Of a stretch of 64,000 bases of DNA, positions 7,959 to 20,697 are shown piece by piece. Numbering within the stretch: the stretch's first letter is position 1; the number at the start of each line of letters is the position of its first letter. This DNA comes from a virus. A program made the translations under genes and the position numbers. The DNA is taken from positions 1 to 64,000 of the IMG/VR virus record IMGVR_UViG_3300022937_000008; one strand, written 5' to 3'. The notes under the pieces are model-generated. The model did not search any database, was not told the DNA's origin, and worked only from the letters and a program-made list of their open reading frames with translations.

Positions 7959-8201
7959 CTACGACCACATCATTGCATATTTCTGTGCTATTCTACTATC
8001 ATAGAATTCTGCAACTAAACTTTTGTTTCCTTTTGTATCAATTTCTAAACACAACTGACCTTGTTCTCTAGGAAGTTCCCATAGCCATTGTATTTGATCT
8101 TTTCCTATAGTGCGTTGCACTTTAGGCCAATCTATATCTAAAAATTCAAAAACGTCTGAGTCTTTATCAAACTTGTAGAGTGTTACTTTAGTATTCTTCA
8201 T
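7959..8201 (-). CDS. hypothetical protein
   Basis: 80 aa in replication operon. Confidence 0.7.
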   Translation of the reverse strand: MKNTKVTLYKFDKDSDVFEFLDIDWPKVQRTIGKDQIQWLWELPREQGQLCLEIDTKGNKSLVAEFYDSRIAQKYAMMWS

Positions 8202-9615
8202 CGTTACCCATGTTATGCAAAATTTCTCTTAATTTTGTCGATTCGACTTTTCCTGCAACTTTTCCTACAGAAACTCCGTCAGTCGGATCATCACTGGGTT
8301 CACGTTGTACTTCAGTTTTTCTTTTGATAGAATCAATAATAGAACTAGATCCTCTATTAGATCCATTTGTTGATTCTTGTTCGTCTTCTGGTAAGTCTGT
8401 AATTCTTAAAGAATCTATATTAAATTCTAAATCTACTTTTTGTCCTACACCGCTCGAACTTCTTGTCTTCATTAACTGTATTTGATAACGTCCACGTTCA
8501 CGCATAGCACGACTTGTAAAAATACCAAACACATTATCTGCTGTTTGAATTTTACTTAATCCCCCTGAAATGTGTGAATGATCAAACTCGACTTCTTCAA
8601 CCGCACCTCTGTTTAACTGTGATGCAGTTACAAAAACACATTGTAATTCCATTGCAAGGTTTCTTAGTTCTTCAGAAACATATTTGTCTTTAATAAACAA
8701 ATCACTAGGAGCAATACGTCTACTAATTGGCATTAAAAGATCTAGATAGTCTACTAACAATACATCAACTCGACGTCCTGTTTTAACTTCATACTCTTTT
8801 AGATATGCTCTAATGTCGTTAGCAGTCTTACCACTTGGCATATACTTGACCTGCATAGCACCAGACTTTTTACCAATCATTCTAACTTTCATTTCTACAT
8901 CATCGATAGATTTGAAAATATCTCTAGTTGGCATTCCAGTTACCATACTATCTATACGCATACTAACCAATGCTTCTGAAAGTTCAAGTGTTAAGTAAAC
9001 TACATTCAATCCTTCTAATGCCCAGTTTACACCTAGGTTAGCAAGGAACAAAGATTTACCTGCACCTGATCCACCTGCAAAAATATTAAGTTCGCCTCTG
9101 TTCATGCCTCCAAATAGTTTTCTATCTAGCGTTGACCAGCCTGTGCTAATTTGTCCGTTGTTATCTTTTAATAATGTTAATCTGCCTCTTGGATCAGCAA
9201 AATAATCTGTACCCATATCTTTTGCTAATCCTATTTGTACTGCTTCTTTAACTAGTCTTTCAACTTGTCCATATTCGTTCTTTTCAAGTAAGTCTGCTGA
9301 ATTAATAATTGCTCTTTCTAATGCTTTATGTCTAGTAAAACTTTCAAATTCGTCCATTAACCATTCTAAGTGTCCATCTTTAAGTTCACCTGCAGGTTTT
9401 AAATCTGTTTTACAGTTTGCATTCACAGTATCAAAATCAGGAAGTACAGTATATTTTTTTGCATACTCGTTTACAAATTGAGCTGCGTCTTGCAACTTTC
9501 TGTCAAACAACGAATAGTCAAAAATACCTTGACATCTAACAAATGTCTCAGCATCACTTAGCATCATTTCTAGATACAGTTTTTGTACTTCATAATCATA
9601 ATTTTTAGACGACAT
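8188..9615 (-). CDS. gp41: DnaB/gp41-like replicative helicase
   Basis: Walker A GGSGAGKS, TLELSE, Walker B LLVDYLD, TASQLNR, MKTRS. Confidence 0.95.
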   Translation of the reverse strand: MSSKNYDYEVQKLYLEMMLSDAETFVRCQGIFDYSLFDRKLQDAAQFVNEYAKKYTVLPDFDTVNANCKTDLKPAGELKDGHLEWLMDEFESFTRHKALERAIINSADLLEKNEYGQVERLVKEAVQIGLAKDMGTDYFADPRGRLTLLKDNNGQISTGWSTLDRKLFGGMNRGELNIFAGGSGAGKSLFLANLGVNWALEGLNVVYLTLELSEALVSMRIDSMVTGMPTRDIFKSIDDVEMKVRMIGKKSGAMQVKYMPSGKTANDIRAYLKEYEVKTGRRVDVLLVDYLDLLMPISRRIAPSDLFIKDKYVSEELRNLAMELQCVFVTASQLNRGAVEEVEFDHSHISGGLSKIQTADNVFGIFTSRAMRERGRYQIQLMKTRSSSGVGQKVDLEFNIDSLRITDLPEDEQESTNGSNRGSSSIIDSIKRKTEVQREPSDDPTDGVSVGKVAGKVESTKLREILHNMGNDEEY

Positions 9616-9636: not shown

Positions 9637-11127
9637 TTAGTATACACTCACACCATACTTCCGAGCAAACTTTTCTGCATCCTTTTTGTCATTTACCATA
9701 GGTTTTCCTTTAATGTTCAAACTAGTGTTTAATAACATAGGACACCCTGTCTTTACATACCATCTTTCCAAAAGTTCTCTTAAACCTGAATTATCACTTT
9801 TACTTACTGTTTGTACACGAGAAGTCTTGTCAACGTGACTAATAGCAGGATATTCTTCGTGTCTTCTACAAATAGATGTATATTGCATATATGGTCCAAC
9901 TGGTCCATAGAAAAACTCTTCTGCGTGTTCAGCAAGTATTACAGGAGCAAAAGGTCTATATCGTTGTCTCTTTTTAATCTTATTAACCTTGTCTTTCATA
10001 TCCTTTCCTCTAGGATCTGCAAGTAAACTTCTGTTTCCTAATGCTCTAGGTCCAAATTCTGCTTTGCCATTTGCTACACCTACTATCTTATTTGTTTTTA
10101 ATTCTTTAAATAATTTGTCTACTGGATATTCTTGCTCTATGTCATATCCAAGATACGGCGTGTTCCAATCTATATGTGTTCTTTGTTTAGCAAGAACAGC
10201 ACCAATGCTTGACCCTGCATCTCCTGGATTAGGCATAATCCAAACTTTTTCGTAATGATTAAATGCACGACTATTTGCTTTGCAATTAAGAGCACACCCA
10301 CCCATTACAACTAAATTCTTACTCTTATATTTTTTATTACAATAATCAAGTATACCAGAAAACAATTCTTCGTATATTGTTTGAGTTGCGGCAGCGATAT
10401 GTATTTTGTCAGTCCATTTATTATGAGATTCTCTCCACCATTTACAACCTCTATGTAAATTGTGTTTGAATTTTATTTCAGGAAAAATCCAGTGACTATG
10501 AGGACCTAATTCAAAAAATTCTTCTCTCATTGAATCATAAAACTTTCTATAATCTCCATACGCTGACATACCCATTAAAATATATTCATCTTCGTTAGGA
10601 GTTAGTCCTATACGTTGTGTCATTGCACTATACCAAAGTCCTATGCTGTTAGGATACCCTTGAGAATATACTTTTGTAATTTCGTTTCCTTTACCTTCCC
10701 AAACAGTAAATGTTTCAAACTCTCCTATACTGTCGATACAAACTATAGTTGCATCTGAAAATCCGCTTGTGTAGTATCCTGCGGCTGCATGACTTTCATG
10801 ATGGCTACTGTAACTAATGGGTGCATTAATGCCATATTGCTTTAAGTAGGTTTTAATATTATTAATATTCCAATTCCAACCTTGTCCAGCATATAATTGT
10901 CTTAGTGTTTTCTTAAAAGGTTTTTCATACCAAACTACTTCGTCAGGTTCTCCCCATTGCCTTGCATAATCTAACAAAGATTTATTTAGGTGAGGATCAT
11001 TTTTCAATCCGCTGAATCTCTCAGAATGACTTGCAAACAGTAATTCTAGTTTTGAAAAAATACTGTCCTTTTGAAACACTGCCAAAGAAGCATCGTGGCT
11101 GTTGGCACTAATTCCCCAAATTATCAT
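9637..11127 (-). CDS. NodU/CmcH-family carbamoyltransferase
   Basis: HDAS, SHHESHAA, DSIGE, GGCALN, PGDAG, EFGPRALGNRS, RPFAP, LLNTSLN. Confidence 0.95.
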   Translation of the reverse strand: MIIWGISANSHDASLAVFQKDSIFSKLELLFASHSERFSGLKNDPHLNKSLLDYARQWGEPDEVVWYEKPFKKTLRQLYAGQGWNWNINNIKTYLKQYGINAPISYSSHHESHAAAGYYTSGFSDATIVCIDSIGEFETFTVWEGKGNEITKVYSQGYPNSIGLWYSAMTQRIGLTPNEDEYILMGMSAYGDYRKFYDSMREEFFELGPHSHWIFPEIKFKHNLHRGCKWWRESHNKWTDKIHIAAATQTIYEELFSGILDYCNKKYKSKNLVVMGGCALNCKANSRAFNHYEKVWIMPNPGDAGSSIGAVLAKQRTHIDWNTPYLGYDIEQEYPVDKLFKELKTNKIVGVANGKAEFGPRALGNRSLLADPRGKDMKDKVNKIKKRQRYRPFAPVILAEHAEEFFYGPVGPYMQYTSICRRHEEYPAISHVDKTSRVQTVSKSDNSGLRELLERWYVKTGCPMLLNTSLNIKGKPMVNDKKDAEKFARKYGVSVY

Positions 11128-11375: not shown

Positions 11376-11477
11376 CTACTTGTATATGAACGGATCTTGT
11401 TTTCTCATTTTCTTAAGCCTTCTTTTAGTTAAGAAAGCATAGTACTTTCTTTTAATCCATCCTATTAAACTACTCAT
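11376..11477 (-). CDS. small basic peptide ending DPFIYK
   Basis: MSSLIGWIKRKYY...KQDPFIYK; start overlaps primase end. Confidence 0.6.
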   Translation of the reverse strand: MSSLIGWIKRKYYAFLTKRRLKKMRKQDPFIYK

Positions 11478-12486
11478 TCTCAAGTACCTTCTTTTCAAAA
11501 TTCTTTTTAGCAACGCTGAGCTTAATGCTACCCGACATTGCTGTTTTAATTGCATCAACTGTTACAAAGAGCCTGCCGTATCTTTGAACAGCATCTGACA
11601 CGTCTTTTATATCGCTTTCCCAATTAGGAAATGCAACACTCCAACCAAACTCTTCTGCTTTTTTAATCAAGTTAACGCCTGCTATATCTTGATCAGGAAT
11701 AACAATAACTTCATGTCCCAACGATTGTATAATTCTATACTGTTGTTCTGCTATATTGTTGGTCAAAAGTGCAACACCGTTGATTGCTAGTGCATCGAAC
11801 GGTCCTTCTGTTACAAATATATATCTCTGATTTTCTTCCTGTTGATCAACGTTGAACACAAAATGTGAGTGATGATCTGATATATATTTTGGTCTTCCTT
11901 CTGTTACTTTTCTTGCAGTATTACCTACAATTCTACCTTTGTAATAAAAAGGAATAATAACTCTTTCAGCATAACCGTCACTAGGAGACCAAAAGAAGTT
12001 TTTAGATAATGGATCGTAGCCTCTAGTATAAATGTATTCTACTACTTGTGCTAACTTTTGTTCTAATGGCTTATTATCGTTAAAATCAACATCTAACCAT
12101 TCTGATATAGGTAAACTATGTTCCGGAAGTTTTTTATCTGTAAAAGATATTCTAACACTAGATTCTCTTGGTTTGTATTCTGGCGATTCAGTTTTTAATG
12201 CTTCAAAAATCATAGCATTAATTTCGTCTTCACTTCCACCTAACCATTTACATAAAGATTTAAATTTTTCGGAAAGTGGTCTACCAGGTTGCCAACTAGC
12301 TGTAAATTTACAGTTGAAGCAGTTATATATTACACCTGTATCAAAACGAATACCTGCACGTTTTCTTTTATCTTGATTATGACCTCGATGATGACAGCAA
12401 GGAGCATTAAATGAAGTCCAACCGCTAGGACTTGTTTTTGCTCGTGGCGGCAGTAGATTACGAAATTTATCTAGAACTAAAGTCAT
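11470..12486 (-). CDS. gp61: DNA primase (gp61-like)
   Basis: N-terminal Zn ribbon (PCC..YNCFNC); TOPRIM TEGPFDA and PDQD; KDVSD. Confidence 0.92.
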   Translation of the reverse strand: MTLVLDKFRNLLPPRAKTSPSGWTSFNAPCCHHRGHNQDKRKRAGIRFDTGVIYNCFNCKFTASWQPGRPLSEKFKSLCKWLGGSEDEINAMIFEALKTESPEYKPRESSVRISFTDKKLPEHSLPISEWLDVDFNDNKPLEQKLAQVVEYIYTRGYDPLSKNFFWSPSDGYAERVIIPFYYKGRIVGNTARKVTEGRPKYISDHHSHFVFNVDQQEENQRYIFVTEGPFDALAINGVALLTNNIAEQQYRIIQSLGHEVIVIPDQDIAGVNLIKKAEEFGWSVAFPNWESDIKDVSDAVQRYGRLFVTVDAIKTAMSGSIKLSVAKKNFEKKVLENE

Positions 12487-12492
12487 ACTAGC

Positions 12493-12521
12493 ATTATACT
12501 ATCTGTATAATACTTTGTCAA
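12493..12521 (-). promoter_or_regulatory. sigma70 promoter for primase/helicase operon (leaderless)
   Basis: TTGACA-N17-TATAAT, ATG only 6 nt downstream. Confidence 0.85.
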
Positions 12522-13395
12522 CTGTTCCTGTGTTATCTGTATCCGGAGTATGCTTGAATCTAAACCAATTAAATTTACCAATTTGATTGTAAAAGAAATC
12601 GGAATCAGAAGTTGAAAGTGTCCAAGATTGTAAGTCAGTCCAATTTTCTTCAATTGGAGCAGCGCCTTTATCTAAACTTCCTTGCAACACCAACTCTCCT
12701 GCATAACTGTTTAAATAGATTTGGAATGTATGTAAACTGTTTGGTGTTGTTAAATTTGGTCTACCATCAAACAATGAGCTTACATAAAACTCTTCATATC
12801 CTGTAGTAGGTGTGTGTCTTGCATAGTTTGGTCGAGGTGTATCAAATGGTGGTTCTGTGTTTGTATCAGTTCCACTATTAAAATTAATTACTTTGTTAAA
12901 ACTTGTTACTTCAACAGTATCGTATGCTTCGCCTTGTACATCGCCAAACACTTCAATAGTTCCTAAACTATCATATTGGCTATCTAAGTATGTGGTTGAT
13001 GATGCTGTTACAGTATATCCACCTGCTGCATCATTAGTTCTAGTTTCTTTGGTAATAGAGTAATCATATAACCCAGGCTCGAGATCAATAAGCTCTGATG
13101 CGGTAATTGTTACAAATGCTCTTCCAACTGTAGCGTCATCATAACTACAATCTTTCTGTAAAACAAGGTCTTTGTTTTCTCTAACTATTAAACGAAAAAC
13201 TAAAACAGTTCCTGTTGTATTAATGGGTTTTTGATCTCCGTTTCTTACCTGGAAATCTATTCTATTATCTACACCCCTGTAGATTTTAACATTACGAGCA
13301 TATACCATTCTTGATCTCTCCTCGGTCCAAGATGATACCACATTTGGGTACACCGTGACCATATTTGGATATAAATATATTGAGTTAATTTGCAT
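12499..13395 (-). CDS. hypothetical beta-rich protein, possibly structural
   Basis: GATAAATA promoter upstream favours the MQINSIY start; Ig-like/BppU-like character. Confidence 0.7.
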   Translation of the reverse strand: MQINSIYLYPNMVTVYPNVVSSWTEERSRMVYARNVKIYRGVDNRIDFQVRNGDQKPINTTGTVLVFRLIVRENKDLVLQKDCSYDDATVGRAFVTITASELIDLEPGLYDYSITKETRTNDAAGGYTVTASSTTYLDSQYDSLGTIEVFGDVQGEAYDTVEVTSFNKVINFNSGTDTNTEPPFDTPRPNYARHTPTTGYEEFYVSSLFDGRPNLTTPNSLHTFQIYLNSYAGELVLQGSLDKGAAPIEENWTDLQSWTLSTSDSDFFYNQIGKFNWFRFKHTPDTDNTGTVDKVLYR

Positions 13396-13425
13396 GACTA
13401 CAATTACCTTTATAATATTTATCAT

Positions 13426-13800
13426 ATGAGAATAACAGAGAATCTACAGCAGAACTTTCCATTTATAAGCATAATAGTGCATGGAGATAAAGAGTACGTG
13501 GGCATCATTATAAACCAAGATGCAAACGTTACCAGTTTCTATGATTATGAGCTTATACCTTCAGAAAAGGAAAGAAAACGCTTCTTAGATCTAGGCGATG
13601 TATGGTGGTGGGAAAGCAATAGACAAATACCTATTAATATTTTCCTAAAACCTGAGATTAATGACTTTAGATACGCTATACGTAACTATACCACAAAAGA
13701 CGTTAAAGTAACAATGGGTCCTGTGACCAGTCTTAACAATATCATTATGAAAAGAATCAAGCGTAAATCAATTACGCTTGTTAGAAAGCCGTCTAGTTAG
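13426..13800 (+). CDS. hypothetical protein
   Basis: FPF..EYVGII..WWWESNRQIPI; TATAAATA at 13370. Confidence 0.8.
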   Translation: MRITENLQQNFPFISIIVHGDKEYVGIIINQDANVTSFYDYELIPSEKERKRFLDLGDVWWWESNRQIPINIFLKPEINDFRYAIRNYTTKDVKVTMGPVTSLNNIIMKRIKRKSITLVRKPSS

Positions 13801-14336
13801 TAGACAAACCAGCCTGTCGCGATATATTTTTCGTGTGTAGGGCTTATCACACCCCTGTGTACCCAAGCAAAGTCCGCTGGCCAAATAACACTTAATCCTT
13901 TCTTTGCTTCAAGTGTAACTTCTTGATATTTCCATTCAGTGCCACCGTGCGGAACATCGTTAAGATATGTCATATAAACTAATTGTCTATTATCGTTTCC
14001 TCGATCACGTTCCCAATGCCAAACTTTAAATCCGCCGCCTGGTGGATAGTATTGGATCATGTTTACTTCATAAGTATTCAAAGGAAGATGACTAATCTGA
14101 TACCGTTCACAGTAGTCGTTGTAGCCTTTCTGCAAACAATCAAAATAATTTCGAATACGTGGATCTCTACTGCTGTTGAAAAAGTTAACATCAACTGACT
14201 GTTTAACGTTGTGGTCTACAGATCCACCATAACCTGCTGCGCCTTCAAACTTATATTCTTTTTCTTCTTTGTGATATTCGATAAGTGCGTCACACACATT
14301 ATCAGGCACAGTAAATGTATGAATAAAAGTTTCCAT
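13797..14336 (-). CDS. 2OG-Fe(II) oxygenase (prolyl-hydroxylase-like)
   Basis: WHWE, YLND..GGTE, WPA...HRG, KYIATGW. Confidence 0.9.
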   Translation of the reverse strand: METFIHTFTVPDNVCDALIEYHKEEKEYKFEGAAGYGGSVDHNVKQSVDVNFFNSSRDPRIRNYFDCLQKGYNDYCERYQISHLPLNTYEVNMIQYYPPGGGFKVWHWERDRGNDNRQLVYMTYLNDVPHGGTEWKYQEVTLEAKKGLSVIWPADFAWVHRGVISPTHEKYIATGWFVY

Positions 14337-14337
14337 G

Positions 14338-14565
14338 TTATCTCATTAACCTATACTGTCTATATACAACATAATCTATCAACAGAAAATTAAGAAGTAA
14401 TCCTAATGCTGTAAGTTTAAATCCTAAAACCGCAGGAATTAATAAAAGAAAAATTCCTAACTTAATTATATAATCAAGAATCAAAAAATTAGGAACAGTC
14501 CAGAAAGGAAAACCATAAACTAATGGAGGTCTGGGTTGTCTATAATCGTTAAACTCATGCACCAT
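14338..14565 (-). CDS. small membrane protein
   Basis: Two hydrophobic segments. Confidence 0.6.
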   Translation of the reverse strand: MVHEFNDYRQPRPPLVYGFPFWTVPNFLILDYIIKLGIFLLLIPAVLGFKLTALGLLLNFLLIDYVVYRQYRLMR

Positions 14566-15133
14566 TGCTTAGTTCCTCACATATCAAATTCATATGAACA
14601 ACAACACCAATAGCATATGCAGTTGCGTGTGATTTTTTAAAATAATATGATCCGTCTTCAGGTTTCGTCCACACTTGTGTCATCACCGTGTCCCATGACT
14701 GACCAATCAAATGTCTCTTCGCGGGTCTTATCATTGCTAGTACGGCTGCTAGTTGTTCTATGCTCTGAGGCTTCATCGTTTCTAGGACGGTAGAGTGACC
14801 TGCGACGTGAAATAATTTGTCGCTGAAGTCGCTGTGCGTGAGTAATTCCCATAGTGGCTCCTTTGTCATGAGTTGTTGTAGATGTTTTTCGTCTCTTACC
14901 CCTTGATACAGGGATACATTTAAGAAATCTATTTTAAAATACTTTTCAATATCTTCTGCTTCTTCGTAAGGTACCGCACATAAGTTTTCCTCAGCATTAA
15001 GAGGTACTTCGTGCATATACACACCTGTATTATGTTTAACAAGTTTATCGTCATCTATACGACTTGCTGTCACGTGCTTAAACAAATTTAATGCACGTTC
15101 TCTATCTGCAAAGTCTATATCTATATCAGGCAT
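14555..15133 (-). CDS. dnaE: miniature DNA polymerase III alpha (family C) catalytic core
   Basis: PDIDIDF, KHNTGV, FKIDFL, LAMIRP, YYFKKSHATAYA: DnaE palm and finger motifs in order within 192 aa. Confidence 0.85.
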   Translation of the reverse strand: MPDIDIDFADRERALNLFKHVTASRIDDDKLVKHNTGVYMHEVPLNAEENLCAVPYEEAEDIEKYFKIDFLNVSLYQGVRDEKHLQQLMTKEPLWELLTHSDFSDKLFHVAGHSTVLETMKPQSIEQLAAVLAMIRPAKRHLIGQSWDTVMTQVWTKPEDGSYYFKKSHATAYAIGVVVHMNLICEELSNGA

Positions 15134-15308
15134 TGACTACTAGTTTCCATTGTTTATAAAGTTCAAACGTTCCTGTTGAAACATATTCTTGACCTGTTTC
15201 CATATCTACTATTTTCCATTTCTCTGGACATTTAGTAATAATACTTAAATTTACAGGTTTGTCAAGTTCTTTTACAACCTTACCGTCTTTTAAAGTTCTC
15301 GTTTTCAT
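15126..15308 (-). CDS. hypothetical protein
   Basis: TKCPEKWKIVDMETG motif, 60 aa. Confidence 0.7.
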   Translation of the reverse strand: MKTRTLKDGKVVKELDKPVNLSIITKCPEKWKIVDMETGQEYVSTGTFELYKQWKLVVNA

Positions 15309-15309
15309 G

Positions 15310-15996
15310 TTAGTCTATCTTCGCTTCTTTAATTACTTCTTTTACAAGCTCAACATCTGCTGGATGAGTCTTGAAATGTTTAATCCAAAATGTAGGATTA
15401 ATAATCGGACTAACAATTTCTAATTGCTCATCATTCATATTTTTGAGCATATCTTTACCTGTAATACTGTTTAGTAAAACCCAAGGTGATATATGCCCTT
15501 CTTTTATATCGTGTGTTGCTCTATTTAAATTTACATATCTAAAATAGTGATTAAATTCTGCTTCTTTATCTTGAGCCCAATCCATCATTGTTTTTACTGT
15601 TCGTTGTATTGCACCATCAGCAGGTTCTATTTTGATCAATTCTTGCAGATATGTATCGTACAATTCATCTCTACACCAGTGATCTAATTTAACTCCGCTC
15701 TTAATAACAAAGTCAATAAATTTTTCTGGATATAACGGATTAGCATTTGACATGAAACTACCAAATTTAACAAATGCATTGTAGTAAGGGCTTGCCGCAA
15801 AGTCGTCAAATGTTTTTTTAGATTTATTTCCTTTTTGTTGGATATCATAAAAACGTTGATAGGTCATGAGAGCAAGTTGAACGTGCTTCTCAGTCTTTGA
15901 CATATGTCTACGCTTTTGCTCGCATACGTGAACAATCAAAGTCTTTTCTTTAGCAAAAGACTTGTTGCAGTATTCACATTTATAATTTAATTCCAT
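15310..15996 (-). CDS. N-terminal C2H2/C2HC zinc-finger protein
   Basis: YKCEYCNKSF....L..H.C. Confidence 0.75.
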   Translation of the reverse strand: MELNYKCEYCNKSFAKEKTLIVHVCEQKRRHMSKTEKHVQLALMTYQRFYDIQQKGNKSKKTFDDFAASPYYNAFVKFGSFMSNANPLYPEKFIDFVIKSGVKLDHWCRDELYDTYLQELIKIEPADGAIQRTVKTMMDWAQDKEAEFNHYFRYVNLNRATHDIKEGHISPWVLLNSITGKDMLKNMNDEQLEIVSPIINPTFWIKHFKTHPADVELVKEVIKEAKID

Positions 15997-16444
15997 CGAT
16001 CTGCTTTTTATCCCAACCTAGGTTTTTGCAATATTCTTTGACTTCTTTGTCTGTAGTAATATTTGCTAGTGTTTCAAGATCTGCTTTTTTCATATCAGGA
16101 AACAACTCGCCTAAAAATTCTTCTTTTTTGTTTTTGCTTTTATTAAGTTTTAACCACTCATGAAAATAAATCTTTTTAGATTCATGTCCGCAACTACAAG
16201 CAAGTTGCCATAGTAGTTTTGGGTGTTTGTTTAGTAACAAAAACAAATTCTTATTAAAACGTTCATTTCCATTTAGTAGGAAATGTTCTTTATCTTCTCT
16301 AGTTCCGCCTTTGATATTACTAATATATCTATTCAGTGTAAAGAAAACAACACTCTTCCTTTGCTCTTCGGTCAGTTCGTCCCATACCTGTTTTGCATTA
16401 AGATCGACTGCTCCTAGAATATCTTTAAGTGCCAATTTACTCAT
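15980..16444 (-). CDS. clamp-loader small subunit (gp62-like)
   Basis: LNRYIS...HPKLLW...FHEWLK pattern, size and context. Confidence 0.55.
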   Translation of the reverse strand: MSKLALKDILGAVDLNAKQVWDELTEEQRKSVVFFTLNRYISNIKGGTREDKEHFLLNGNERFNKNLFLLLNKHPKLLWQLACSCGHESKKIYFHEWLKLNKSKNKKEEFLGELFPDMKKADLETLANITTDKEVKEYCKNLGWDKKQIDGIKL

Positions 16445-16667
16445 TATCAGTTCCTTTACTCAGATGATATATTAGTTTAAGGCCTTTTAGTGATTTTTGC
16501 AAGCCTTTATTTCCCCGATTGGCTAAATGTTGTATTTCGGAAAAGTCATGATCGTCAATCCACCAATCTGGATATTCTTTCTTTAAAACAATAGTACGCT
16601 CACCAGTTTCCGTGTCTCTTTCAAAAACTGTTTCTCCTCCATCTGGTGACTCGTAAATCTTAACCAT
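16437..16667 (-). CDS. hypothetical protein
   Basis: IYESPDGGETVFER motif. Confidence 0.7.
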   Translation of the reverse strand: MVKIYESPDGGETVFERDTETGERTIVLKKEYPDWWIDDHDFSEIQHLANRGNKGLQKSLKGLKLIYHLSKGTDNE

Positions 16668-17214
16668 TCCTCTCCGCTAGTATTATAAGCTCTTTAACTG
16701 GCATTTCTTTTTTCAATTGTTTTGACCATTTTGTAAAATCCTTATAGTGATCAAATGTAATTTTAAATCCTGCTTTAGTGAATCTCTGTTTCCACCAATC
16801 TGGACTTTCTTGTATTAAATGAGCATTACGGCCGTCTGCCAATACTAGTTTTGCAGGCGCACAAGAAATTAAATGATACGTGTATCTACAGTGTTCGTAT
16901 ATTTCTTTTAGTGTTTCGTCAATGCAAGAAGGTTCAACGTGTTCTAGTACATCTGTAGAAAAGATTAGATCAACGTTTGGTAATGCAGTATTGAATTCGG
17001 GTACACATGGATCGTAACCGTGATATTTAATTTTTGGAAATACCTGTTGGAAAGTTTCTCGTAGACGTCCTTTTCCACAACCAAAATCTAAAACTGAAGT
17101 TGCTGATTTCTCTGCAATGTATTTGACCAGTTGCTTAGGTATCTTATTACGCTTACCGTAGTCGTCTACAGAATGAGCCAGGCTCATTATTTTTCTGTAG
17201 TTTTCGGTAATCAT
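16660..17214 (-). CDS. class I SAM-dependent methyltransferase
   Basis: VLDFGCGKG, YDP, STDVLEHV. Confidence 0.9.
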   Translation of the reverse strand: MITENYRKIMSLAHSVDDYGKRNKIPKQLVKYIAEKSATSVLDFGCGKGRLRETFQQVFPKIKYHGYDPCVPEFNTALPNVDLIFSTDVLEHVEPSCIDETLKEIYEHCRYTYHLISCAPAKLVLADGRNAHLIQESPDWWKQRFTKAGFKITFDHYKDFTKWSKQLKKEMPVKELIILAERNG

Positions 17215-17411
17215 TACTTTTCATCCTTGGCCTTCGGATAAGGGCTTTTATCCTGAGACACAAGATAACAGTCTGCTTGTATCTGTGCTATGAGGTTATC
17301 TATTTCTGCAAGAGAGCCTTTAGTATCGCCATATTTTATTTCACGAAGTTTATCAGCATCTTTTTTAATAGAATCGATCTTGTCACAGAACTGACTAATT
17401 TTATGTAACAT
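17214..17411 (-). CDS. hypothetical protein
   Basis: GAGGAG SD; TTGACT-N17-TACAAT promoter upstream. Confidence 0.75.
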   Translation of the reverse strand: MLHKISQFCDKIDSIKKDADKLREIKYGDTKGSLAEIDNLIAQIQADCYLVSQDKSPYPKAKDEK

Positions 17412-17474
17412 ATATTTCTCCTCTTTACTTCATAACTACTTTATTGTAAAGTAAAACTCAAGTAAAGTCAAGTA

Positions 17475-18446
17475 TTATTTAAAAAACTTTTTGACAAAGT
17501 TTTGAATAATATTTGATACAGCCCACTCAGCAACGTGACGTGAATCGGTTAACTTATTTCCCTTCTTATCGGGTTTTGGATCACCACCAAAAGACTTCAC
17601 ATCCATATGTGCTGGAACCCATTTTGCAAGTTCAAAACTTGGCCAATAATACCAATTGTTAAAGTTTAATTGATTGATCTGTTCTATAGCAACTCTTAAA
17701 ATACTTTTAGACACACAGTCACTAACTACACAAGGTCTACCGACAAATGTAGCATTAAGTGGCACTGGACTTAGAGTAAAGATAATTGGTTTATCTCCAC
17801 AATGTTCTCTAATTAATTCAATAATTCTTTTCATGTTGTCATAGTTTTCTTCTACAGTACTAATAACACACTCATGTTTTTCTACATCAAACATTCCGTC
17901 TGGGACGCCTCTCCAAAATACACCTTTAGTATTTTTATCTCTCCAAACTTCTGATAGTCCAAAAGTTATAACAAACCCGTCATATTGTTTAAATTTTTCT
18001 TTAATCTGTGATTGTTCTTCTTCGCTTTCCCACTTAAAAATTCCTTTGTCAGCAGCCTGATCGTACCAGTATGCATCACTACTTCTGTTACCAGTTAATG
18101 CCCATTCAATAAATTGCCTAACAGCAAAACTATTGTTTAATCCTTCCGGAACAAATACAGTATCACTAACTTGTTGGTTTCGTTGCATCCACTCTCTAAT
18201 TCTCATAGCGAAGCATGAACCCATTGTCATAATTCTTGATTGTTTTGTAAAGATAGGCTCTTTAGGACCAGATTGTTCGAATAGTTGTGTTACTACTCCA
18301 TTCAAATTATTTTGACTCATAGCAGCCGTTGGCCAAAAATCTAATGATTCGCCTGTGTGCCATTTCAAGTTTTTAAAGTTGCTGTTCGCAATACTTTCTT
18401 CTACGTGTTTGACAGTTTGTATTTCTATATTCTTTAGTTTAGCCAT
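17475..18446 (-). CDS. GSCFA-domain protein (SGNH-like)
   Basis: TMGSCFA, ITFGLSEVW, TLSPVPL, SKSILR, YWPSFE, RHV. Confidence 0.9.
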   Translation of the reverse strand: MAKLKNIEIQTVKHVEESIANSNFKNLKWHTGESLDFWPTAAMSQNNLNGVVTQLFEQSGPKEPIFTKQSRIMTMGSCFAMRIREWMQRNQQVSDTVFVPEGLNNSFAVRQFIEWALTGNRSSDAYWYDQAADKGIFKWESEEEQSQIKEKFKQYDGFVITFGLSEVWRDKNTKGVFWRGVPDGMFDVEKHECVISTVEENYDNMKRIIELIREHCGDKPIIFTLSPVPLNATFVGRPCVVSDCVSKSILRVAIEQINQLNFNNWYYWPSFELAKWVPAHMDVKSFGGDPKPDKKGNKLTDSRHVAEWAVSNIIQNFVKKFFK

Positions 18447-18448
18447 TG

Positions 18449-19108
18449 TTATCTCACAAATATAATATCTATTTTTGTTGCTTGTTCTACCTTTTTATAA
18501 CCTATAGATTCTAAAAATTCTACAGCGTCAGGCATATCTGTATTTTGCCTTTTTATGGTTTTTAGTTTATGTTCCATAACAATTACAGGATTGTTAGTTT
18601 CAAAGAACTTTTTAGATCCTTGTAACAAGTAACCTTCGTGGCTGTCGACGTCGATCTTGATAAAGTCAATATCTTGTAAATTAAAACTATCTAGTGTACG
18701 TGCTTCAACTTCTGCTTTAAAATGATGTTTAGGTTCATCATCTCTAGTATTGATCCACCCTGAAAAAGTTGACGGCCCGTTAAGTAAAATCTTTTTACCA
18801 TCTGTATTGCTAAGTGCATAATTTTCTAATTTTACATTAGTAATATTCTGTCGTTGTAGGTTATTAACACAACAATTGTATACATCGCTTCTAGCTTCAA
18901 ACGCATATACATTTTTAAATTTTTCAGCAATAACTTTAACGCTATCGCCAATCCATGTTCCTATATCGATAGCATTGTCATATTTCTTAACATACTTAAG
19001 AGCTTTTTCAATAGGCTCAATACAAGACCAAGATTCGTTTTCTACACGGGTAATCACTTCTGGAAAAGTTTCATAGTCCGGCAAAACCCAGTTACCAACA
19101 AGTTTCAT
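18449..19108 (-). CDS. FkbM-family methyltransferase
   Basis: IDIGTWIG, AFE, LDSF, FIKIDVD. Confidence 0.88.
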   Translation of the reverse strand: MKLVGNWVLPDYETFPEVITRVENESWSCIEPIEKALKYVKKYDNAIDIGTWIGDSVKVIAEKFKNVYAFEARSDVYNCCVNNLQRQNITNVKLENYALSNTDGKKILLNGPSTFSGWINTRDDEPKHHFKAEVEARTLDSFNLQDIDFIKIDVDSHEGYLLQGSKKFFETNNPVIVMEHKLKTIKRQNTDMPDAVEFLESIGYKKVEQATKIDIIFVR

Positions 19109-19160
19109 TAGTGTTCCTTTTCTCCATTAACACTCATATTTATGTGTTAAATACTAGGTC

Positions 19161-19952
19161 ATGAAAAAATATGCAATCTGCCCACAAGTAATAGAAAATA
19201 AGTCATCTAATTGGATACTGCAACCGTTTATCAGAGCCGGTGCTAAAACATTTAATACAGTACAAGAAATACCAAATGATTATATTCTAATATCTGTACA
19301 TCATCCTCCCTGGAGATCTCCATATAAAGAATGGATAGAAAAAGGTAATAAGCATATAGAAATTGATTATGGCTATTGGGGTCTAAATATTCCAAGACGC
19401 AATACTCGACGTGTAACGTTTGGTGGTTCTCATAATTTAAATATGAGAGATGTGCCATATTCTAGATTAAAAACACTTGATCCAAAAGTTGAAGATTGGA
19501 AACAAAAAAGAGGTAATCAAATACTAGTAATTGAACCTCAACAAGGTATTATCCTAGAAAGAACAGGAGTTCCATTAGAAACATGGAAGAAGAATATGCT
19601 AGATACTATTCAAGAATTTTGGGATGGTCCTGTAAAATTTAGAAGGAAAGCAGGTGGAAAGAATCCTGCTCGTTGGCCTACTTTTTTAGAAGATCTACAA
19701 GCATCGACAGGAGTTATCGGTGAAAGAACAATGGCCTGTGTTGAAGCAGTTATACTAGGATACCCTGCATATACTGTAGACTATAGTGCTGTAAGTTTAA
19801 TTATGGGAACTGATATAAAGAAGATTTTAAATCCTGAGTTTCCTGATCGTACTAAGTGGCTAGAGCATATTGCGTGGAGTCAGTTTACGCCTGAAGAGTT
19901 TGCTAACGGAACCTTTGTAGTTGACTGTTTAGAACAATATCAAATTATTTAA
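19161..19952 (+). CDS. GT-B-like capsular-polysaccharide-type glycosyltransferase, paralog 1
   Basis: IDYGY, RRK, VEAVILGYP, R.KW..IAWSQFTPEE shared with five paralogs. Confidence 0.6.
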   Translation: MKKYAICPQVIENKSSNWILQPFIRAGAKTFNTVQEIPNDYILISVHHPPWRSPYKEWIEKGNKHIEIDYGYWGLNIPRRNTRRVTFGGSHNLNMRDVPYSRLKTLDPKVEDWKQKRGNQILVIEPQQGIILERTGVPLETWKKNMLDTIQEFWDGPVKFRRKAGGKNPARWPTFLEDLQASTGVIGERTMACVEAVILGYPAYTVDYSAVSLIMGTDIKKILNPEFPDRTKWLEHIAWSQFTPEEFANGTFVVDCLEQYQII

Positions 19953-20697
19953 GAGATTGTTTTGTCTTAAACTTATTAATCTTATAAGTTTTATCTTTAC
20001 CCTTTGAATGATTAATATACGGTCCTACTAACGAAGCATGGATAGGATGTTTGCCTGATTGTCTAACATTTAAATCATAAAAAGATTTAGGATCATTAAA
20101 TTCGTTACGCATAAAATCAAATGTGTAACTATCATGAGTTTGCTTAAGATCAATAAACCTTCCGCTTACAAAAAGATCTTCCCATGCTTTTAAAAATTCA
20201 TGTGTTTTAGGATTATTTAAGTTAAAAGCCATAAAGCCACACTCACTATACTTGTGAGGTCTTCCTACATAGGCTGCAATAATATTAGGTTTAAAAACAG
20301 TATCAGAAAAGTTTTGATCAAACTGTTTGTAAAAAATCGAATCGGCATCAAGCCATATCAACCAATCTGTTTTTGTTTTCTTCCAGGCTTGCCATATAGC
20401 AAATGTTTTATGAGAAAACTTAATAGCGTCCCATTTAAATCCTTCTGCTCCGTTTGCTCGAGGATTATCCTTCCAACGCTCTTTGAATTGTATAATTGCC
20501 GGACAGTCTTTGTAAAGATCTATCCATTCAACTCTAGAAGAAAACTGTTTCTTTGCATTCTCTAGAGTTGTATCGGATAACTCGTGATAGAACAGAAGTT
20601 TACTATTAGGATGCCAATTAGTATCTAATTCTTTAGTTGTTGTCGAAGTAATGTCAGTCCAATACTTCTCGTTAAAACTTGTAACGGCAGTATACAT
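19945..20697 (-). CDS. GT-A glycosyltransferase
   Basis: VTSF, KFSHK, WLDAD, SECGF, HDSY, H.KG; paralog of 26217. Confidence 0.8.
   Translation of the reverse strand: MYTAVTSFNEKYWTDITSTTTKELDTNWHPNSKLLFYHELSDTTLENAKKQFSSRVEWIDLYKDCPAIIQFKERWKDNPRANGAEGFKWDAIKFSHKTFAIWQAWKKTKTDWLIWLDADSIFYKQFDQNFSDTVFKPNIIAAYVGRPHKYSECGFMAFNLNNPKTHEFLKAWEDLFVSGRFIDLKQTHDSYTFDFMRNEFNDPKSFYDLNVRQSGKHPIHASLVGPYINHSKGKDKTYKINKFKTKQSLK

Follow-up and report, generated by a model that had tools for sequence, protein, structure and literature searches.

Sequence analysis has revealed, in group 2.2 jumbo phages, a split, minimal form of the DNA polymerase III (Pol III) alpha subunit, which accompanies a family-B polymerase there (Iyer, Anantharaman, Krishnan, Burroughs and Aravind 2021, Viruses 13:63, PMC7824862). 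PF07733 has been reported as the one gene that marks PGC_A, a largely metagenomic cluster that includes the marine jumbo phages placed there (Weinheimer and Aylward 2022, PMC9123017). Our literature searches turned up no biochemical characterisation of the family's members. We analysed a 64,000-nucleotide stretch of viral DNA (the window; positions 1 to 64,000 of IMG/VR record IMGVR_UViG_3300022937_000008), from an uncultured, probably aquatic jumbo phage, and found that a 192-amino-acid open reading frame (ORF) at 14555–15133 on the minus strand is an ortholog of the C-terminal unit described in 2021; the family and the split are therefore already known. We refer to this metal- and template-binding part of the split Pol III alpha as the C-unit and to the separately encoded N-terminal part as the N-unit. 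The window protein shares the family (phrog_11778, for example gp16 of phage 121Q, whose N-unit is gp56), the size, the start at the DxD strand and the invariant residues of the described C-units, its gene lies in the same block with a primase and a helicase, and its relatives carry a distant N-unit and a family-B polymerase. There is no difference in kind; the N-unit is not on the present fragment, and the window protein is 37–51% identical to cultured members.

Other known enzymes resemble this system in part. DnaE and PolC (PDB 2HNH, 2HPI, 3E0D and 3F2B) share with it homologous palm strands bearing the Asp triad and a Lys, homologous finger motifs and the order in which these elements occur, but in the C-unit the equivalent of E. 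coli DnaE residues 400–784 is condensed to 192 amino acids, the PHP, thumb, clamp-binding, HhH and OB regions are lacking and a separate polypeptide carries the first half of the palm. Intein-split cyanobacterial DnaE is likewise a C-family polymerase made from two distant genes; however, there the halves are full-length, carry split inteins and are spliced, whereas the phage units have no inteins, are split at another site and would assemble non-covalently. Pol-beta-like nucleotidyltransferases (Pol X, CCA-adding enzymes and CD-NTases) are of similar size, and an assembled palm of N-unit and C-unit would share their hG[GS]...DxD...D layout, but the window protein matches specifically C-family polymerases and keeps fingers of the DnaE type.

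The ORF runs from an ATG to a stop codon, and the motifs quoted in an earlier, sequence-only reading of this DNA are all present in it, on the minus strand, which that reading had not given. The protein begins with MPDIDIDF (residues 1–8) and contains KHNTGV (33–38), KIDFL (67–71), AMIRP (133–137) and YYFKKSHATAY (163–173). We aligned a profile of 55 family members to E. coli DnaE and obtained three blocks, in which DiDiD corresponds to PDFDVDF (400–406), KiD.L...A.iRP to KFDFLG (553–558)...LFRPG (637–641), and FkkSHA.aYA to FNKSHS (756–761). The DxD metal-binding pair (codons D3-I4-D5; 15119–15127, minus strand) is equivalent to D401/D403, and the third catalytic aspartate, together with the phosphate-contacting lysine (codons K67-I68-D69; 14927–14935, minus strand), is equivalent to K553/D555. 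The finger motifs AMIRP and YYFKKSHATAY (14615–14737, minus strand) align with LFRPG and FNKSHS, respectively. D401, D403 and D555 are the established catalytic triad of DnaE, and K553 is its phosphate-contacting lysine. The earlier claim that all three catalytic aspartates are retained was borne out by this alignment, with D3, D5 and D69 as the corresponding residues.

Database searches gave the same relationship. The protein matched phrog_11778 (annotated "DNA polymerase", 197 positions) with an E value of 2.6e-64, its residues 3–187 aligning to profile positions 8–194, and 96 cultured jumbo-phage records matched it at the identities given above. A sequence search of 1.84 billion cluster representatives returned 426 matches at E ≤ 1e-3 (252 at E ≤ 1e-10); among the best 150 of these 426, nearly all that covered the full query were ~185–215 amino acids long. 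At least 546 IMG/VR loci are related to the C-unit. A phmmer search of PDB sequences yielded two significant matches (E values of 0.00056 and 0.0011), both to Thermus Pol III alpha chains and collinear in three pieces (461–551, 656–701 and 810–823), which are the same three blocks that the family profile defined; at E values above 0.5 it listed mycobacterial Pol III alpha and an unrelated designed helix bundle. PF07733 scored 16 bits on the C-unit, below its gathering cut-off of 23.9, and a Pfam scan of the 192-amino-acid protein at E ≤ 0.1 returned neither this family nor PHP, thumb, clamp-binding/HhH or OB domains. Judged from these alignments, the likeness of the ORF to DnaE is far above chance.

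An AlphaFold2 model of the C-unit, built on the 55-sequence alignment, had a mean pLDDT of 95.9, and its first 18 Foldseek matches in the PDB were all C-family polymerases. VIA-align superposed 185–188 residues of the model on C-family polymerases with Z scores of 9.0–9.5 and an rmsd of 3.4–3.7 Å, spanning residues 461–839 of Taq Pol III alpha, 400–784 of E. coli DnaE, 419–811 of Mycobacterium tuberculosis DnaE1 and 971–1296 of PolC; the best unrelated chain reached a Z score of ~3. Given fold matches confined to C-family polymerases and the profile alignment described above, the modelled protein is best described as a ~380-residue stretch of DnaE in condensed form. The thumb insert and the PHP, clamp-binding and OB domains are missing from it, and the fingers are present only in part. 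The model spans only E. coli DnaE 400–784, in agreement with the earlier observation that PHP, thumb, most of the fingers, HhH and OB are absent. In terms of the Pol-beta-like palm, the ORF begins with strand two, and it lacks strand one and also the nucleotide-binding motif GRGS (E. coli 361–368). What had been called a minimal polymerase core is therefore half a catalytic core, the N-terminal palm half with GRGS being missing too.

The missing half is encoded elsewhere in relatives. In the full records of phages 121Q, Phosso and Atu_ph07, a separate small ORF scored above the PF07733 cut-off over profile positions ~16–98, and across the N-units of these three phages and of two IMG/VR relatives positions ~11–98 were matched above the cut-off. 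The N-units of 121Q, Phosso and Atu_ph07 are 177–180 amino acids long and have the C terminus ...GRGSSVASY...EFL. N-units end in ...GRGSS...EFL/EFF, equivalent to E. coli 361–393, and the first residue of the C-unit corresponds to E. coli 399–400; by alignment, the end of the one coincides exactly with the beginning of the other, in the DnaE loop that precedes PDFDVDF. In 121Q the N-unit (gp56) lies ~31 kb from the C-unit (gp16), and both are named "DNA polymerase" in RefSeq. Two IMG/VR relatives, G002 and G004, whose C-units are 63–66% identical to that of the window, encode an N-unit of 155–156 amino acids that is separated from the C-unit by 167–174 kb and lies ~23 kb away from a family-B polymerase ORF. 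The spacing of the two units is thus lineage-specific, at 167–174 kb in G002 and G004 versus ~31 kb in 121Q. The family-B polymerase ORF (~890 amino acids, PF00136) is present in G001, G002 and G004. No N-unit was found in the 280-kb G001, in which the family-B gene lies ~19 kb from the contig end; this fits an N-unit located just beyond that end. In metagenomes, the N-unit family amounts to no fewer than 7,984 clusters (90% identity), and the C-unit to 426 cluster representatives (50% identity). Among cultured phages, the counts of N-units and C-units per host genus were equal for the genera in which both were tabulated, bar one Klebsiella record.

The IMG/VR record from which the window is taken is 114 kb long and judged ~32% complete, so that the whole genome should be ~350 kb. 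We found no N-unit in this record with PF07733, two N-unit protein queries, a tblastn search with three N-units or a six-frame scan for G.G[RK]GS. A weak tblastn match at record positions 73984–74205 was rejected, as it falls in an unrelated ORF that lacks the G.G[RK]GS motif. The record also gave no match to family-B polymerase (PF00136) or to the gp59 C-domain (PF08994), which at ~32% completeness is uninformative. Thus a search for further DnaE fragments and for a family-B polymerase, which the sequence-only reading had put forward, returned neither from the 114-kb record and both from relatives. Given the distances in relatives, the N-unit and the family-B gene would be expected to lie off the record, so that their absence from it says nothing about the whole genome. 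Of the two explanations that had been offered, a split Pol III whose partner lies elsewhere is the one that agrees with these data: relatives encode the missing N-terminal palm half as a distant gene, and a fused form exists.

The fused form was found in three clusters (P0088, P0271 and P0272), all from short metagenome contigs, which encode proteins of 375–376 amino acids consisting of an N-unit and a C-unit joined by a short linker. A single PF07733 match crosses the fusion junction, residues 97–207 aligning to profile positions 12–121. In a FastTree phylogeny of 68 C-unit sequences, the fused proteins formed a clade (support of 1.0) that was nested, with support of 0.99, within a group of nine C-units encoded on their own. 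When the tree is rooted at its midpoint, the fusion appears to have arisen secondarily. The fused form is rare, and these three proteins would be convenient single-chain constructs for biochemistry.

We also predicted the structure of the natural pair of N-unit and C-unit from G002, using a separate alignment for each chain; the C-unit of this pair is 63% identical to that of the window. The ipSAE was 0.91 in all three runs, compared with 0.00 for the best of three controls, a mark that 58 of 80 solved complexes and 2 of 110 mismatched pairs attained. At least 91% of contacts were common to the runs, and the pLDDT of the partner was 76–86. The closest predicted contacts join residues 6–8 of the C-unit, in the DxD strand, to residues 118–119 of the N-unit, in the strand before GRGS, and the FKKSHA helix is predicted to contact the C-terminal helix of the N-unit. 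Because DnaE structures have been solved and the two units are halves of one domain, this score may merely echo likeness to solved DnaE.

Despite an average identity to the C-unit of ~40% (range of 31–56%), the 55 homologs share seven invariant columns, and these are only D3, D5, H34, K67, D69, A129 and P137. All 80 IMG/VR relatives that we fetched have an intact, uninterrupted ORF of 185–195 amino acids with the same start, which follows the pattern M/L-PD[IV]D[IL]DF (M-P-D in 78 and L-P-D in 2). The median dN/dS was 0.13 and the maximum 0.34 (Nei–Gojobori method; 132 pairs with 0.05 < dS < 1.5). Frameshift decay and loss of the catalytic aspartates, which had been named as the outcomes that would speak against a functional polymerase fragment, were sought in these sets and not found. 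The C-unit gene is real and under strong purifying selection.

The C-unit gene lies in a block that is conserved from uncultured relatives to Phosso, Atu_ph07 and 121Q, in the order 228-amino-acid zinc-finger protein, small ORF, C-unit, opposite-strand gene, virion structural protein, primase and DnaB-like helicase. Directly upstream of the C-unit in the window is a 60-amino-acid ORF (15126–15308, minus strand) that ends 8 nt inside the C-unit gene; in view of this overlap, the two are probably translationally coupled. This ORF matches only the last 53 of the 559 positions of phrog_4098 and has homologs at the equivalent position in two relatives; it may correspond to the C-terminal domain of a family of larger proteins, encoded here on its own. 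Downstream, the opposite-strand gene (phrog_11637; 13390–13800, plus strand) abuts the 3' end of the C-unit in 6 of the 7 relatives compared, and is followed by genes for the virion structural protein (12499–13425, minus strand), the DNA primase with a Toprim domain (11470–12486, minus strand) and the DnaB/gp41-like replicative helicase (8188–9615, minus strand). The window also encodes a second DNA helicase, which we read as UvsW-like. The block is interrupted twice in the window. Between the C-unit and the opposite-strand gene, a 179-amino-acid 2OG-Fe(II) oxygenase and a 75-amino-acid hydrophobic ORF occupy 13797–14565 (minus strand), which looks like an inserted accessory cassette because in 6 of the 7 relatives the opposite-strand gene directly abuts the C-unit; relative L023 has an insertion of ~1.3 kb at the same spot. 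Between the DnaB-like helicase and the primase lies a 496-amino-acid carbamoyltransferase (Carbam_trans_N and Carbam_trans_C; 9637–11127, minus strand). On the other side, the region 16660–20697 adjoining the replication genes encodes a Methyltransf_23 protein, a GSCFA family protein, an FkbM methyltransferase and a protein with a weak GT2-like match, and may be a sugar- or DNA-modification cluster.

The 228-amino-acid protein (phrog_11058; 15310–15996, minus strand) is encoded upstream of the C-unit in all seven relatives compared and is more conserved than the C-unit, with 74–83% identity among the best 120 of more than 6,000 clusters. Its only Pfam match is a weak, N-terminal one to C2H2, and its all-helical model (pLDDT of 80) consists of an N-terminal zinc finger and a helical body. 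Foldseek gave no PDB match for it at E ≤ 0.001, the best Z score in a wide VIA search was 4.5, and the ESM Atlas returned unnamed viral clusters only. The one lead was a faint resemblance to BFVD models of phage 'DNA helicase loader' proteins (probability of 0.94, E value of 0.027), and the protein, whose homolog in 121Q is gp14, may be a divergent gp59-type loader. The 154-amino-acid protein encoded at 15980–16444 matches only PHROG families of unknown function. The sequence-only reading had proposed both proteins as partners of the C-unit in a split Pol III; neither is DnaE-like in Pfam or PHROGs, and the former also lacks a match to any solved fold.

The ORF at 14555–15133 is almost certainly the C-unit of a split mini Pol III. 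Drawing on the observed homology, fold, conservation, split and junction, fused form and co-occurrence of the two units, we propose the following mechanism. The C-unit would supply two beta-strands with the Mg-binding aspartates D3, D5 and D69 and the lysine K67, as well as condensed finger helices with the IRP and FKKSHA motifs. In DnaE, the helices with these motifs line the site of the template and the incoming nucleotide. A separate N-unit of ~155–180 amino acids would supply the first strand and the GRGS nucleotide-binding motif, and the two units would dock through a shared beta-sheet, producing a Pol-beta-like nucleotidyltransferase palm with partial fingers, ~350 amino acids in all, without a thumb, a proofreading domain or a clamp-binding domain. 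The likeliest activity of this assembly would be short-patch, low-processivity, template-directed DNA synthesis accessory to the family-B replicase, with primer extension beside the primase and helicase or gap filling as possible roles. We give this overall explanation, a two-subunit miniature C-family polymerase, a probability of roughly 0.7. Within it, formation of a heterodimer by the C-unit and the N-unit is very probable; that the pair is a templated DNA polymerase we consider only slightly favoured, and any specific role is assigned with low confidence. The boldest form of the proposal is tentative, and we hold it at somewhat less than even odds: that the pair suffices by itself as a DNA polymerase of ~350 amino acids, the smallest C-family one known, dedicated to primer extension or gap filling beside the family-B replicase and preserving or mimicking the ancestral form of the catalytic core of the bacterial replicase. 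For the phage of the window, pairing is predicted from relatives, since its 114-kb record contains no N-unit. Against a polymerase, no thumb, clamp-binding or exonuclease module was found, and relatives already carry a full family-B polymerase, so that no replicative need is evident.

The same two points would suit an enzyme that is real but is not a templated polymerase, such as a terminal or untemplated nucleotidyltransferase, a modifier of RNA or primers, or a maker of nucleotide signals as in other families with the Pol-beta fold. The Pol-beta-like fold underlies many non-polymerase transferases, and the pair lacks thumb, clamp-binding and proofreading parts. However, the DnaE-specific IRP and FKKSHA motifs are nearly invariant and lie outside the minimal transferase fold, and in DnaE they are part of the fingers facing the template and the incoming dNTP; the C-unit gene moreover resides in a conserved block with a primase and a helicase. 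We therefore regard a non-polymerase enzyme as unlikely. That the 192-amino-acid protein acts alone, as the repurposed miniature nucleotidyltransferase that had been suggested from the letters of this DNA, is very improbable: it holds all three aspartates and has a confident fold by itself, but the hG[GS] motif and first strand of the nucleotidyltransferase fold are carried by the N-unit, the N-unit co-occurs with it and can be fused to it, and in the predicted complex the partner buries its N-terminal DxD strand.

The great reduction of the protein, and the absence of an N-unit from the 114-kb record, would also be compatible with a non-catalytic remnant of a decayed DnaE that is kept as a scaffold or regulator. 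Yet it is exactly the catalytic residues that are invariant at ~40% average identity, dN/dS is 0.13 and none of the 80 relatives is broken, which makes such a remnant highly unlikely. Rejoining by protein trans-splicing, as in cyanobacterial DnaE, might be suspected from halves encoded so far apart, but it is contradicted by the sequence at the break, where no split-intein sequences are present: the M-P-D (78 of 80) or L-P-D (2 of 80) start at the catalytic strand leaves no room for a C-intein, N-units stop at the EFL/EFF helix with no intein extension, and the total length is ~350 amino acids. We consider the chance of an intein split to be close to nil. A last alternative assigns the neighbours at 15310–15996 and 15980–16444 to the polymerase as further subunits, for example as a substitute thumb or DNA-binding part. 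In favour of this idea, the 228-amino-acid gene precedes the C-unit in relatives ranging from marine ones to 121Q, Phosso and Atu_ph07, and its product has a C2H2-like zinc finger at the N terminus; on the other hand, neither protein resembles DnaE in Pfam or PHROGs, the fold of the larger one is not polymerase-like (best solved-fold Z score of 4.5), and a conserved order within a core replication block is no proof of contact. Additional subunits of this kind thus seem improbable.

The idea of a minimal Pol III alpha and its split date from 2021. To these our analysis adds the exact split junction, the rare and apparently secondary fused form and a quantified purifying selection, together with a high-confidence fold of the C-unit, a predicted heterodimer and the metagenomic abundance of both units. 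Should the pair of N-unit and C-unit prove active, it would mark the smallest functional core of a bacterial-type replicative polymerase and would give engineers a very small polymerase in two pieces, and the phages that encode it would have a replisome that combines family-B and family-C enzymes.
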